Source: a virus
DNA length: 29,909 bases
Reading direction: 5' to 3' (one strand)
IMG/VR virus record: IMGVR_UViG_3300017989_000330
In this document: piece by piece, positions 17,202 through 21,312 of the stretch
Numbering within the stretch: position 1 is the first letter of the stretch
Layout of the letters: each line of letters begins with the position of its first letter
Program-made: the position numbers and the translations under genes
Notes under the pieces: generated by a model
The model's database searches: none
The model's input: the letters and a program-made list of their open reading frames with translations, nothing else
Told to the model about the DNA's origin: nothing

Positions 17202-17739
17202 AAGTTTTATAAATACAAAAAATAAATGGCAGAAAGTTTACAAAGAAGTTTCTGATCAGATTCAAGTCATTTCAAATCAAGACTCTAATAATACTCAAAT
17301 CAAAAATAATGTCTCTCGATTAGATTTAGATTTTGGTTCTTTTTCCAAGATTCGAAATTATGATACTGCATGGGTAGACGCCGATTCTATAATGTCGGGA
17401 GATACAATTTATCGTCTTTATAAAACGTGGCAAATTAACTTCCCTTCTTTAGATATTAAATATCTTTCTTTTTTTAGATATGATATTCTGGCGAAATTAA
17501 ATACTTCGGATACGGAAGGAATTATTAGTGGAGATTCTAACTTTTATGTGCCTTATTCTACATATTTTTCTAAGAGCTTTGTGTGGGATATAAAAGATTT
17601 GGAAAGTAATCCAAGTTCAGATAATAAAAACGCTACATTAAATGCTTCGATTTATATAACAAAACCTATTTATTTGACTTTGCCGCTATTTAAATTCAAA
17701 CTTTTGATTAAGTTTTTACCACTTAGACATTGGGATTAG
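17191..17739 (+). CDS. Tail-end protein paralogous to 15726..17201
   Basis: Shares INTKNK and YD(S/T)(G/A)WV motifs. Confidence 0.5.
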   Translation: MTFESFINTKNKWQKVYKEVSDQIQVISNQDSNNTQIKNNVSRLDLDFGSFSKIRNYDTAWVDADSIMSGDTIYRLYKTWQINFPSLDIKYLSFFRYDILAKLNTSDTEGIISGDSNFYVPYSTYFSKSFVWDIKDLESNPSSDNKNATLNASIYITKPIYLTLPLFKFKLLIKFLPLRHWD

Positions 17740-18190
17740 TTTTTTCGATGGATACTTTAACTTTTGGAAGTTTAACTCCACATTTCCAAAGTGCATGATT
17801 AGTTTTTTGCGGTTTACCGAATTCAAGAGTAAACCGCTTTTTTTCGGTTCTGTTACGTTTGGGTAAAGTTTTTATAATTAAAGGTCGAAATTCTTGTCCC
17901 CATTCATTAATAATTTGTGCAGATTTCCCTTTACGATGAATCGAAAATTGATAAACTTTATTTCCATTTTTACCAAATAAATTGATTGTATTTGTAAGTT
18001 GACCTCTAGCACCATATAAAAATTTATATCCCTCTTTTAATTGAAAATAAGCTTCAAACCCCTGTAAAACAATGTATTTCTCATTAGCAAGTCGATAACT
18101 CATTTTCATAATAGGAACTCGAGGCAATAAATTCCATTCACATTTATCTTGAGAAATTTGTTGTCCGTTAATTAAATAAACAGTCCACAT
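17723..18190 (-). CDS. Hypothetical protein (155 aa)
   Basis: TAATG-coupled; last gene of the minus-strand operon. Confidence 0.6.
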   Translation of the reverse strand: MWTVYLINGQQISQDKCEWNLLPRVPIMKMSYRLANEKYIVLQGFEAYFQLKEGYKFLYGARGQLTNTINLFGKNGNKVYQFSIHRKGKSAQIINEWGQEFRPLIIKTLPKRNRTEKKRFTLEFGKPQKTNHALWKCGVKLPKVKVSIEKTNPNV

Positions 18191-18264
18191 TATTCTTTCT
18201 CCGATTTATTTGCAATTAACACAATAATTAAACCGATTAAAAAACTTAATAACACTTTAATCAT
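18190..18264 (-). CDS. 24-aa hydrophobic micropeptide
   Basis: MIKVLLSFLIGLIIVLIANKSEKE; SD AAAGGA; overlaps neighbours at both ends. Confidence 0.45.
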   Translation of the reverse strand: MIKVLLSFLIGLIIVLIANKSEKE

Positions 18265-18370
18265 TGGTTATCCTTTCAATAGATAAATCATCATCTTTCT
18301 CCCAAACACTCGTCACACAACTTTTTTCATATTTTAAAATATTATCCTTTGGTGTCTTTCGTTTAGTCAT
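18257..18370 (-). CDS. 37-aa hypothetical peptide
   Basis: ATGA overlap with the methyltransferase stop; SD AAAGGA. Confidence 0.45.
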   Translation of the reverse strand: MTKRKTPKDNILKYEKSCVTSVWEKDDDLSIERITND

Positions 18371-19960
18371 AATATCCTTTCCACAATGGCTTGAACAACA
18401 TTAGTTGTAATTGCGTTACCGAGCGTCTTATAACGCTGTGTATCTGATATTATAACTTCTTTTCCATTCATGTCAAGTCCCTTCTCCGTCCATCCATCCG
18501 GGAATCCTTGGAGTCTTTCTGCCTCGACAGGTGTTAAGCGTCTGATACGCACTTGCTCTATATATTGCCCACATCCACCAGTAGTCGGCATACAAAAAGC
18601 CTCATCGTTCTTGCATAAAGTTCCAGACCCACCACTTGAATATTGTAAAGATGGTCTGTTTGGATTTCTTGTTTGCTGGTTGATTACTAGTAACGATCTC
18701 TTACGCCTCTCATTATTTTTTTTGTTCGTTCCTTCGATAGGAAATACTTCTGGTCGACTTGTTCCTCTAAGATGTCCGACAATGAAATATCTTGAAAAGT
18801 CTCCGAGGTGTTTGGTGATGTAAAGAGAATTGCTTTCCGAGAGAGTATATTTTTCTGCTTTCTTATTGATTCTTGCATATTTCGTACCTTCCTTGATTAG
18901 GATTAAATTTGATAATGTTTCTTCCCATAAGTTCCTTGACGAGTTTCTCAAGTAAACGGTGAGCGTTAAGATGCTTAGAAGCATTCTCGAATAAGAAAAG
19001 GTTTCCCAATTCATTATTTCGTTTATCACAGTCAATATGGTGTACTTGTTCTGTCCTAAGTAATTTTCTTCCCATTCGTTTTGCAACAAGGACTCTATGT
19101 TCCGCCATAAATTTACCCTTACCAATGGATATTTGCTTTCTTCCAAACTGGTCGAAATGATAGCCTTTGTACTTTCTGCGAATAGGTTTTGGTTTTGGCT
19201 TATTTCTTTCAAGATTAGACAACTTAATATCGAGTCTTTCGATTCTGCTTCTTGTAGCTTTTTCGCTTCTGTTAAGTTTTTTAGCAATATCTGGAACAAG
19301 AATTGTTCTATATACTTTTTTAATGTATTCATCTTCTGATACTGACCAACGATTTCTTTTAAATGTGTGCATATAAAAAATATCCTTTCTCTGTTTTGGG
19401 GAACACCATAATTCTTTGAGTTGTAATTATCATAGTTTATATAATACCCCAAATTAGATAAAGATTCAACCACTTTTTCCATTACCTTTCCTTTTGAAGC
19501 AGAAAGAATACCTTTTACGTTTTCTAGTAAAGCAAAACGAGGTTGCTTGGATTTAAGACACCGTATGATTTCAAAAAACAGTTTCCCTCTTGGGTCATCA
19601 AGAGAGAGCCGTTTTCCTGCAATAGAAAATGATGGGCAAGGAAATCCACCGACCAAGAGGTCAAAGTCTGGAACAGTTGTCCAATCAATTCTTGTGCAAT
19701 CTCCATAGTTCTTGTGTCCTTTAAAGTGTTTTTCATAGATTTGGATGGCGTATTTATCGATTTCGGAGAAACCGACACACAGGGGCGATTTGCTGTTCCT
19801 CCACCCCCGCTCGTTCCCGCTTCCAAGCATTGACATATCATCTGCGGAGTGTGAAGCTTCGCACTTCCACCTTTGAAAACTCTTATTGATCCCAAGTTCA
19901 AACCCTCCTTTAACCGATGCCTGAAAACATCGAGAAATATTTAAATTGTTTAGGCATCAT
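18367..19960 (-). CDS. C5 cytosine DNA methyltransferase; motif I interrupted by a stop plus 7 nt; 198-codon in-frame insertion
   Basis: Motif I FSGIG/GFELG, motif IV GGFPC, motif VI LENVKG, motif VIII PQNRERIF, motif IX RRLTPVEAERLQGFPD, motif X LGNA. Start ATG 19960 has SD GAGGAGG. Could be recoded or a pseudogene. Confidence 0.9.
18687..18878 (-). CDS. 63-aa ORF in the +1 frame of the methyltransferase (LSDILEEQVDQKYFLS)
   Basis: SD AAGGAAGGT 7 nt before ATG; overlaps the HNH stop. Confidence 0.45.
   Translation of the reverse strand: MQESIRKQKNILSRKAILFTSPNTSETFQDISLSDILEEQVDQKYFLSKERTKKIMRGVRDRY
18784..19377 (-). mobile_element. 594-nt HNH-bearing insertion in methyltransferase motif VIII
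   Basis: Removing it restores PQNRERIF-IVGHLRG. Confidence 0.7.
18863..19372 (-). CDS. HNH homing endonuclease (169 aa) nested in the methyltransferase gene
   Basis: AEHR.LVAK.MGRKL...EQVHHIDCDKRNN...NL signature; SD AAAGGA 10 nt before ATG. Confidence 0.9.
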   Translation of the reverse strand: MHTFKRNRWSVSEDEYIKKVYRTILVPDIAKKLNRSEKATRSRIERLDIKLSNLERNKPKPKPIRRKYKGYHFDQFGRKQISIGKGKFMAEHRVLVAKRMGRKLLRTEQVHHIDCDKRNNELGNLFLFENASKHLNAHRLLEKLVKELMGRNIIKFNPNQGRYEICKNQ

Positions 19961-20370
19961 TGGGCATCACCTCCTCGTGTGGACAATACCCATAGATTCC
20001 TCTAGCCATATTACAATTATGGCATAGCACTCTGAAACCTTTTGGGTATTTGTTCCTCCGTAACCACGGTGCAATAGACCTATCAGGCATTTGCTTGCGG
20101 TGTTTAGCACCATCATTGTTAATATGGTCAAAACATAAAAACTCGATATGTGTTTCCCCACAACAAGCACATTTGCCACCATAGTGTTGGATAGCTTTTA
20201 TTCTTACTCGCCGCCTATATCGTTTATTCTTTTCTACATACTTCTTCTTTCGTTCTTTAGGGAGATTTTTATAATACTCTCTTGCATCAGAACGAAGTTT
20301 ATCCCTATTTTTTTCTCTCCATTTTCTGCTATATTCTTTTAAATATTGTTTCCTATCCAAAAAACACTTC
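19909..20370 (-). mobile_element. 462-nt HNH-bearing insertion between two copies of methyltransferase motif I
   Basis: Removing it joins MKYFSMFSGI (20400-20371) to GGFELGI (19908 onward) in frame. Confidence 0.6.
19950..20360 (-). CDS. HNH endonuclease with zinc-binding Cys pairs (136 aa)
   Basis: GGKCACCGE.....FDHINNDG ... LCHNCN motifs; basic N-terminus. Confidence 0.9.
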   Translation of the reverse strand: MDRKQYLKEYSRKWREKNRDKLRSDAREYYKNLPKERKKKYVEKNKRYRRRVRIKAIQHYGGKCACCGETHIEFLCFDHINNDGAKHRKQMPDRSIAPWLRRNKYPKGFRVLCHNCNMARGIYGYCPHEEVMPNDA

Positions 20371-20400
20371 TATCCCCGAAAACATTGAAAAGTATTTCAT
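20353..20400 (-). pseudogene. Orphan methyltransferase N-terminal fragment (MKYFSMFSGIEVFFG*)
   Basis: ATGA-coupled to the upstream ORF; nine residues identical to the copy at 19942-19916. Confidence 0.7.
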
Positions 20401-20567
20401 TGTTCTTTTCTCACTTTATACCTATTAAAATCTCCATCTAATATTTCTTTGATATAAGCAAATGCATGTTCTTTTCTTATAAAATACATAGTTTTGTCGT
20501 GCGAACCAAAAACAGTTCCTAAACATTCGACGCCATCAAAAATTAAAATAAAATATGAACCTCGCAT
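20397..20567 (-). CDS. Hypothetical protein (56 aa)
   Basis: TAATG/ATGA coupling at both ends. Confidence 0.5.
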   Translation of the reverse strand: MRGSYFILIFDGVECLGTVFGSHDKTMYFIRKEHAFAYIKEILDGDFNRYKVRKEQ

Positions 20568-20734
20568 TATTTTTTCTCCAGTATTTTTCTAGTGAGTTCG
20601 CATCCAAACAAAGCCCCAGTTATAAAAGCCTGATATAACATTTTATCAATACTTTTGTTCGCAACTTTAATATCGTTTGCTTTTTTAAATTTATAAAATT
20701 GTAATTTTACTTCTTTTTGAAATTCAGAAATCAT
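20567..20734 (-). CDS. Hypothetical protein (55 aa)
   Basis: SD AAAGGA; stop overlaps the next start. Confidence 0.5.
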   Translation of the reverse strand: MISEFQKEVKLQFYKFKKANDIKVANKSIDKMLYQAFITGALFGCELTRKILEKK

Positions 20735-20736
20735 AA

Positions 20737-21312
20737 TTAATCCTTTTGATAAACAATTTCGTAATTAGAATTAGCTAATAATTTTTTATACCATGTGTGT
20801 GTAGTAGCCTCTGAATGAGTTTGATAATCAAATTTTTCTCCTATTTTCCAATACCAAGATAAAACTCGATTAATACAGATTTCAGTTTTTGGCCATTCTA
20901 AATAACGAGCAAACAGTTTTATTCCAGTCAACCAAGTTAAAAACTTACCAAAACAATTTAAAACATCGTACCCTCTTCCTAAATCTTTTAAAGATACTTC
21001 TTTTAAAACTCTTTGTTCTTCGATTGTTAAATCTTTTTTACGAAAGATAACTTGTCTTTTATTTAAACTCCAATCAGATAATTGAACTTTTGCTTGTTGT
21101 TCGATAATATCAACTAAATTAGTTTGTCCATTAAAATCGTTATTTATCACCATAGAAGCGTGATAATATTCAACTTTTTCTTGTGTATCTCTAATTTTTC
21201 TCCAAAGATGTTGAAAAACTGTTGGTGCAGTCATAAAAAATTTAACAATTTTTGGGCCAGTTTTATCTGAATCACTTAAAATAATGTCACCTATTTGTGG
21301 AATATAATTCAT
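20737..21312 (-). CDS. Permuted papain-like NlpC/P60 (YiiX/YebB-like) protein
   Basis: GDIIL ... YYHASMV ... GRGYD ... EICINRV: His before Cys order. Confidence 0.65.
   Translation of the reverse strand: MNYIPQIGDIILSDSDKTGPKIVKFFMTAPTVFQHLWRKIRDTQEKVEYYHASMVINNDFNGQTNLVDIIEQQAKVQLSDWSLNKRQVIFRKKDLTIEEQRVLKEVSLKDLGRGYDVLNCFGKFLTWLTGIKLFARYLEWPKTEICINRVLSWYWKIGEKFDYQTHSEATTHTWYKKLLANSNYEIVYQKD

Follow-up and report, generated by a model that had tools for sequence, protein, structure and literature searches.

Can a phage gene for a C5 cytosine methylase still give rise to an enzyme when a stop codon lies inside its motif I? This question is raised by the virus record IMGVR_UViG_3300017989_000330 from IMG/VR, a stretch of 29,909 nucleotides that we will call the window. 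On the minus strand, positions 19927-19894 read TTT TCA GGC ATC GGT TAA A GGA GGG TTT GAA CTT. An initial annotation of this DNA proposed that ribosomes leave the glycine codon GGT, skip the stop, and resume at the glycine codon GGA. Its reading of the junction agrees letter for letter with the minus strand (GGT TAA A GGA GGG is at 19915-19903), and its arithmetic is right: a hop from GGT to GGA gives FSGIGGFELG. The idea of a stop-hop also gains comparative support from six further cassettes, although the annotation missed the cassette in which the stop lies and the native start of the gene. The stop codon is the 3' edge of a cassette that encodes an HNH homing endonuclease and that has invaded motif I of the methylase gene. 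Related cassettes share a stop-containing spacer of four or five bases, which suggests, short of proof, that the enzyme is made by ribosomes that skip this spacer. We tentatively favor the reading that the spacer may confer immunity to the homing endonuclease and may be decoded by a short ribosomal stop-hop, without going so far as to call this probable.

An HNH cassette at motif I of the methylase gene

The features around the junction are listed here; type A refers to cassettes of the same kind as the window's.

20353..20400, minus strand: native 5' remnant of the methylase gene (agrees with the beginning of the uninterrupted allele, L002:3976)
19909..20370, minus strand: inserted cassette of 462 nt, with an HNH gene, a new Shine-Dalgarno (SD) sequence and start codon, and a recoded N-terminus; the last four bases are TAA A (by comparison with the empty allele L002)
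19950..20360, minus strand: HNH homing-endonuclease gene, 136 amino acids (phrog_2255, E = 2.8e-10; CxxC and HNCN motifs)
19968..19976, minus strand: SD sequence GAGGAGGTG for the cassette start (direct reading; conserved in all type-A cassettes)
19910..19960, minus strand: open reading frame (ORF) for the replacement N-terminus, ATG ATG ... GGT TAA, 16 residues ending in FSGIG (sequence comparison)
19913..19915, minus strand: proposed take-off codon, GGT (Gly) (direct reading and cassette alignment)
19909..19912, minus strand: spacer TAA A, a stop plus one base (TGA A, TGA AA, or TGA GA in relatives)
19906..19908, minus strand: proposed landing codon, GGA, the first native codon past the cassette, inside AAGGAGG (direct reading)
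18367..19908, minus strand: 513-codon frame of the C5 cytosine methylase, beginning at the landing codon (PF00145, E = 9.7e-66; open frame)

The closest uninterrupted relative (P0002, locus L002) starts MKYFSMFSGIGGFELG. The same start is found in the window at 20400, where the ATG overlaps the stop codon of the upstream gene (ATGA). From this start, the window encodes ten native residues (MKYFSMFSGI), runs into foreign sequence after ATA G, and stops at 20353 with a TAG after five foreign codons. The TTG start of the HNH gene overlaps this stop codon. Across the cassette, the host's methylase frame has many stops. Near its other end, the cassette carries its own copy of KYFSMFSGIG, which differs from the remnant's copy at every available synonymous site. 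Because of this anatomy, as compared to the empty allele, we view the stop in motif I as the last element of a nuclease cassette that replaces the 5' end of the methylase gene. The strong SD sequence and the start codon that the initial annotation noticed upstream of the junction are present (the ATG at 19960 lies 9 nt after GAGGAGGTG), but they belong to the cassette; the native start is the ATG at 20400, 490 nt upstream. That annotation also considered that the insertion might be the scar of a lost element, which is wrong in detail, as the HNH cassette is still in place.

We found 331 homologs of the cassette's HNH protein, and several of them are at the same site of other methylase genes. 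The nucleases of the cassettes belong to phrog_2255 and to phrog_3106 (HNH endonuclease). In IMG/VR, homologs of the HNH protein (L003-L008) are mostly located elsewhere in the genomes, and only the one at L003 is upstream of a methylase gene. A megablast search of the locus against 50,697 phage records gave a sole match, to 49 nt of a methylase.

Another concern was that the stop might be an error of sequencing or assembly. From 19700 to 20322, the window has zero differences from contigs of four public runs from three studies (of sediment and seawater), and an independent ENA contig (L001) is identical to the window over 3.7 kb, including the junction. Given these matches, the stop-containing insertion is real and the assembly error that the initial annotation allowed for is excluded. 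As the junction is also present in six other assemblies, we consider it virtually certain that no sequencing or assembly error is involved. The contigs from the public runs start or end at the left edge of the cassette (20323-20355 in the window), which hints that the population is heterogeneous there.

The spacer in related cassettes

We looked for related loci among truncated gene calls for methylase homologs, among close homologs of the nuclease, and with one pattern scan of JGI metagenomes. Besides the window, 16 further loci have the junction or the cassette. As to the junction itself, which we sought in these relatives, a glycine codon, a stop, one or two purines, and GGA follow one another in six further independent cassettes. 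The take-off codon and spacer are GGT TAA A in L019 and L020, GGT TGA A in L009, GGT TGA AA in L024, GGT TGA GA in L023, and GGA TGA AA in L010. With the window included, four lineages have a spacer of 4 nt and three have one of 5 nt, the stop (TAA or TGA) directly follows the take-off codon in 7/7 type-A cassettes, and the spacer is always followed by GGA GGR TTT GAA CTT. Scans of IMG/VR for the junction pattern and for a UUU-UGA variant (see below) gave only chance matches at the ends of genes, or none, and we rejected another match to the junction, from genome_contigs (L021), as due to chance.

Spacers of 4 and 5 nt correspond to different frame offsets, so only a hop from the glycine codon to GGA restores FSGIGGFELG in all seven cassettes. 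After landing on GGA, the product is the same for either length of the gap.

Other cassettes break the frame in other ways. In type B (L011, L026, and L029-31), one extra T gives UUU UGA A, and in type C (L025), an extra C gives UUU CGA A. In L027 and L028, the cassette is fused to the methylase in frame and the entire target is recoded, and the contigs with P0134 probably have an in-frame cassette as well. As we read it, L027 shows that the replacement N-terminus probably serves to keep the methylase expressed. All of the frame breaks in this family of cassettes are within 12 nt of the target site.

The site is occupied in L009, L020, L022-L027, and L029-31, each with a 5' remnant that ends within ATA GGA GG, and L002 is the empty allele. 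The remnants always read GGR ATA GGA, while the cassettes' copies read GGY ATC GGN. This recoding leads us to infer that the nuclease cuts the empty site and spares the occupied one. In our favored reading, the spacer would split the recognition sequence of the nuclease, whose native form is GGR ATA GGA GGG. With the recognition sequence pulled apart, the invaded gene would be immune to re-cutting. Translation would initiate at the cassette's ATG, probably coupled to the termination of the nuclease ORF, which would melt a hairpin that covers the start (described below). With the stop codon in its A site, the ribosome would then stall while peptidyl-tRNA-Gly sits on GGU. Some of the ribosomes would slide forward by 7 nt (in relatives, by 8 nt), and the tRNA would pair anew with GGA. 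The product would be a methylase with a canonical motif I, and its expression would probably be low.

The hairpin's two arms lie at either end of the replacement N-terminus:

19952..19959, minus strand: 5' arm of the hairpin, overlapping the start codons (conserved pairing)
19915..19922, minus strand: 3' arm of the hairpin, ending at the first base of the take-off codon (conserved pairing)

They form a helix of 8 base pairs between the region of the start codon and the bases up to the first G of the take-off codon. Across the type-A cassettes, 56 of 56 cells of the alignment are paired. At two of the pairs, there is covariation (AU, GC, or UA at one and GU, GC, or AU at the other). When we shuffled the sequences, just 1 of 500 shuffles reached the observed pairing. 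The helix is in every minimum-energy fold of the single sequences, with z scores of -2.4 to -3.75. The changes within the helix are at the wobble positions of codons for proline, serine, and glycine, so both the structure and the peptide are preserved. The peptide itself also seems to be conserved: at the nine core codons of the cassette's N-terminus, across the seven sequences, there are nine changes with a synonymous outcome and two replacements, whereas chance alone would make only about 21% of the changes synonymous. The end of the nuclease ORF is within the hairpin's 5' arm or next to it, which is consistent with translational coupling. We infer that the hairpin is also involved in hopping: it ends at the take-off codon, and its re-folding behind a sliding ribosome, conceivable in light of the literature on gene 60, may favor forward movement. 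Translational coupling alone could also be its role.

Two unrelated types of nuclease share one type-A 3' module. Of the nuclease of L009, only the last 40% is left, but the replacement N-terminus persists, along with a methylase frame of 356 codons with changes at 0/72 conserved positions. In L019, there is no 5' remnant, so the cassette's start gives the only N-terminus that is available.

The cassettes also move. L029:2453-2962 and L030:954-1463 contain a nearly identical cassette unit, with two differences in the first ~460 nt. The shared unit runs from 47 nt before the ATG of the nuclease to about 21 nt past the break, and it includes the frame-breaking T. On its flanks, the upstream genes are unrelated, and the downstream sequence is about 10% diverged. 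We take this comparison as direct evidence that a unit that contains the frame break has homed recently.

Two side observations concern the cassettes' edges. L023:1396-1440 and L024:819-863 lie within about 1,200 nt that are identical but for a pair of changes at the junction, spaced 14 nt from each other. One changes serine to asparagine in the motif and the other changes A to G in the spacer, which suggests rapid change at the nuclease's target. Also, many of the cassettes have a sigma-70-like promoter (TTGACA, 17 nt, TAnnnT) right after the remnant (L009:2683-2720, L022, L023:945-985, L025, and L026). In the window and L020, the TTG start of the nuclease is coupled to the remnant's stop instead of to a promoter.

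The methylase frame and alternative explanations

In the window, the match to PF00145 covers positions 22-322 of the profile, and motif I is complete only after the hop. The downstream frames that could be evaluated are open for 513, 574, 359, 310, 347, and 328 codons. Under simulated neutral drift of at least 0.056 per site, enough to account for the unusual substitutions in the window's methylase (see below), a frame of 513 codons stays open in only 0.5% of runs, so the methylase frame of the window seems to be under selection to be read. Except for the window's, the methylases that bear cassettes have 0-2 changes at 72 near-invariant positions.

The methylase genes have further rearrangements. 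A second nuclease gene in the window lies within the methylase frame, which stays open through it:

18863..19372, minus strand: second HNH gene, HNH_3 family (PF13392), out of frame at motif VIII

After the 3.7 kb of identity, L001:3698-4270 and the window (18367-18790) have a target-recognition domain (TRD) and C-terminal part of the methylase that are wholly different, which suggests that the specificity module was swapped by recombination. Following the IQIYERHF strand, the methylases of L023:1437-2264 and L024:860-1219 contain about 60 more residues, inserted in frame, which may mark a third site of invasion. In P0092, an in-frame extension of 46 residues upstream of motif I resembles the window's own TRD, so P0092 may represent tandem or fused methylases.

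The junction is also the beginning of another ORF:

19524..19901, minus strand: ORF of 125 codons in the +1 frame relative to the methylase, with TTG starts 2 and 8 nt past the junction's GGAGG (ORF, codon-phase, and homology evidence)

Starting from the UUGs in TTT GAA CTT GG, nearly all members of the family, the empty allele among them, have 125-304 codons free of stops in the +1 frame, while the +2 frame has 12-47 stops. Besides the window, the loci with the +1 ORF are L002, L009, L011, L019, L020, L023-L027, L029, and L030. We analyzed the codon phase of substitutions for the window with L002 and for L029 with L030, as other pairs are too diverged (58-69% nucleotide identity). In the variable loop, which extends from FELGI to the CxGxSEID strand, the first codon position of the methylase takes 12/15 of the substitutions between L029 and L030 and 14/22 of those between the window and L002. 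Past the loop, the substitutions are at the third codon position of the methylase. Furthermore, the +1 peptides are homologous to genuine TRDs of other family members (E = 2e-12 and 6e-11). From the phase of the substitutions and this homology, the loop appears to be read and selected in the +1 frame. The frame under purifying selection comprises the first ~40 codons of the +1 ORF (about 19780-19898 in the window), and within the loop, the methylase frame is, on our analysis, merely kept open. Where the +1-selected loop ends, we saw no -1 slippery site by eye. M.EcoHK31I reportedly has one subunit that is encoded in an alternative frame, although our literature search found nothing on it.

Several observations weigh against our favored reading. 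The methylase of the window is changed at 10/72 near-invariant positions, as compared to a median of 1 and a maximum of 5 in the reference proteins. Its motif IV reads PCP instead of the catalytic PCQ (19620-19640, minus strand), and the region of motif IX is also altered. Thus, the initial annotation's claim that all downstream motifs are intact holds for the open frame of 513 codons and the match to PF00145, but not for motif IV or for these near-invariant positions, and the changes point to relaxed or altered constraint on this methylase. In L026, there is a second frameshift, from the loss of one base at motif X (L026:3770-3800), so that M W stop replaces M C G N A V, which reflects either decay or faulty assembly. 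The codons for take-off and landing also pose a difficulty. In 6/7 cassettes, they are GGU and GGA, which are not shared by the standard bacterial tRNA-Gly species, and we found no tRNA genes in the window. (L010 has matched codons, GGA and GGA, and pairing at two of the three bases was reported to be sufficient in some systems.) The nascent chain has just 16 residues in the window. We found no conserved structure 3' of the take-off codon: the folds differ between the copies, with z scores of -1.4 to +1.3. The 5' remnants, which are not functional, likewise differ only synonymously, so the synonymous pattern in the cassettes' N-terminus can be inherited from genes that were once intact. As the cassette demonstrably homes, the intact downstream frames could belong to recent victims. 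Finally, with the spacer in place, the native GGAGG becomes AAGGAGG, and the second UUG of the selected +1 ORF follows 8 nt later.

The main rival to the hop is that the gene is dead, as in the recent inactivation that the initial annotation named among its alternatives; we consider this unlikely but take it seriously. The cassette would kill the methylase, the spacer would provide immunity and nothing else, the replacement N-terminus would be the relic of an ancestral in-frame cassette, and the open frames would be those of recent victims that have not decayed yet. The recent homing of a unit with a frame break (L029 and L030) would fit, as would the break of the public-run contigs at the left edge of the cassette, the altered positions in the window's methylase (with the catalytic PCQ among them), the second frameshift in L026, and the L023 methylase frame, which stops about 45 residues into the TRD. 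The remnants' synonymous-only variation, which can be inherited, fits as well. However, a dead gene would not explain why the N-termini of seven diverged copies have a purifying pattern, a conserved SD sequence and ATG, and a hairpin whose bases co-vary, or why the stop was kept in all seven, even through a change between TAA and TGA. It also does not account for L009, which pairs a truncated nuclease with a pristine methylase, or for the 513 codons that are open in the window despite high divergence. And all three kinds of break are at sites where the P-site tRNA can re-pair and restore the exact protein. A different possibility, which we consider improbable but which could coexist with a hop, is that the stop and the purines cause termination and reinitiation: ribosomes would restart at the UUG that is 8 nt past AAGGAGG and would express the TRD-like +1 ORF in place of the methylase. 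That ORF's openness in nearly all members, its substitutions at the methylase's first codon position, and its matches to TRDs all speak for this. Also, GAA CTT is kept at synonymous sites in 13/14 loci, the stop in type B overlaps a +1-frame UUG, and a fully cognate hop, from GGU to GGU, would land in the +1 frame, which supports reinitiation as a rival or as an additional role. But reinitiation leaves the amino-acid conservation of the cassette's peptide unexplained, and L010, which has the junction and yet has a +1 ORF that closes after 16 codons, speaks against it as the only function. L027 lacks the UUG, and as the +1 ORF exists in the absence of a cassette, the spacer is not needed for it.

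Two remaining ways to express the gene seem far less credible. One is that the ribosome shifts by +1 in the conventional way at GGU UAA A, reads lysine from AAA, and adds two residues to motif I. A spacer of 4 nt does amount to an offset of +1, and shifting is favored when a stop occupies the A site (as in prfB), but the three lineages with 5-nt spacers would need a +2 shift, the re-pairing from GGU to GUU is poor, and the shift would insert a residue that varies (K, E, or R) into the glycine loop, so we consider it very improbable. We give still less credence to the removal of the 462-nt insertion from the RNA, by an intron or the like, which would join the start at 20400 to the GGA at 19908. 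Removing exactly 462 nt would restore the gene. But an Rfam scan of 17500-21000, with E up to 1, gave no match and no intron family, and the insert is almost wholly ORF, which leaves too little other sequence for a group I or group II intron. Furthermore, the size of the insert (~240 to 462 nt) and the type of nuclease vary, with conservation limited to the 3' coding module; a 5' exon is missing from L019; and removal from the RNA would not explain why the replacement N-terminus is conserved at the protein level. We also set aside a two-piece enzyme, with the 16-residue peptide as one piece and the rest as the other: in the variants with 5-nt spacers, an ATG or TTG overlaps the stop, but the 4-nt variants lack an in-frame start after the stop.

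Known recoding systems and what a hop would mean

The closest known system is the mobA/gene 39/gene 60 element of phage T4, which has the same logic and evolutionary behavior. Bonocora is said to have described this element, with its 50-nt translational bypass, in 2011. As in T4 gene 60, an HNH homing endonuclease has entered a conserved host gene, the element supplies an N-terminal extension, a stop immediately follows the glycine take-off codon, translation would resume at a glycine codon, and the insert is thought to be self-protective. There are differences as well. The gap is 4-5 nt instead of 50, there is no 3' take-off stem-loop, the nascent peptide has 14-16 residues, and the host methylase does not end up as two functional polypeptides. 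No single tRNA normally reads both GGU and GGA, whereas homologs of gene 60 use codons that are identical or that share a tRNA by wobble. There is also no sequence homology, and the hop in our cassettes is a proposed one. To our knowledge, the documented cases of efficient natural bypassing are essentially those of T4 gene 60, with its homologs, and of one lineage of yeast mitochondria. In T4, the bypass protects against MobA, the element's own nuclease; the nuclease has been swapped for other types; and the bypass outlives the loss of the nuclease (Manning & Atkins, bioRxiv 10.1101/2022.08.31.505936). Similarly, in our cassettes, nucleases are swapped and the recoding site is kept after the nuclease is lost.

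In synthetic stop-hops in E. coli, matching codons lie on both sides of a stop, and 9 nt encode a single residue (Weiss et al. 1987, as covered in the review PMC5009743). These are also short forward hops of a peptidyl-tRNA over a stop to a similar codon a few bases on, and by analogy, they show that the hopping step we propose would be physically possible. Unlike the proposed hop, which would shift the frame and belongs to a conserved and mobile natural element, they are lab constructs that hop in frame and at low efficiency. A review from 2016 stated that no natural occurrences of in-frame stop hopping were known (PMC5009743).

Like our cassettes, the +1 frameshift of prfB (RF2) involves an A-site stop that is slow and, close by, an SD-like sequence. 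Of the sister cassettes, those with UUU UGA (L011, L026, and L029-31) fit the prfB type, as their P-site codon re-pairs at +1 by the stop. In contrast, the window has no overlapping codon for re-pairing at +1, the 5-nt variants would need +2, and the SD-like run is at or after the site rather than 3 nt before it.

Hidden, out-of-frame HNH genes of the ShiLan type in the methylases of actinophages are neither introns nor inteins (PMC11855218). They too are HNH homing elements within a phage methylase gene, and the second HNH gene in the window (18863-19372) is of this kind. At motif I, unlike in ShiLan, the host frame is closed through the nuclease, and the element brings a new start and a spacer that contains a stop.

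More speculatively, our view of the whole family is that its cassettes break the frame at the target for self-immunity and keep the methylase by three kinds of recoding: a 7-8-nt stop-hop after a hairpin, a +1 slip at UUU-UGA, and a +1 slip at UUU-CGA. This would be a natural, short, and widespread counterpart of the gene 60 bypass, and the same genes would also carry a selected, TRD-like ORF in the +1 frame that starts at a ribosome-binding site perfected by the spacer. We consider this wider proposal doubtful. In the literature that we searched, we found no description of such cassettes in methylase genes.

Genes of this kind are now annotated as N-terminally truncated methylases (P0001, P0015, and P0086). 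If the hop does not occur, then these are still homing cassettes that kill methylases, with an unexplained conserved leader and hairpin. If it does occur, the cassettes would provide a minimal and easily engineered system for studying the roles of take-off, landing, and an upstream hairpin, with natural variants at hand that differ in the length of the spacer, the stop codon, and the covariation of the hairpin. Hopping would then be a general route by which homing endonucleases attain self-immunity without destroying the host gene.

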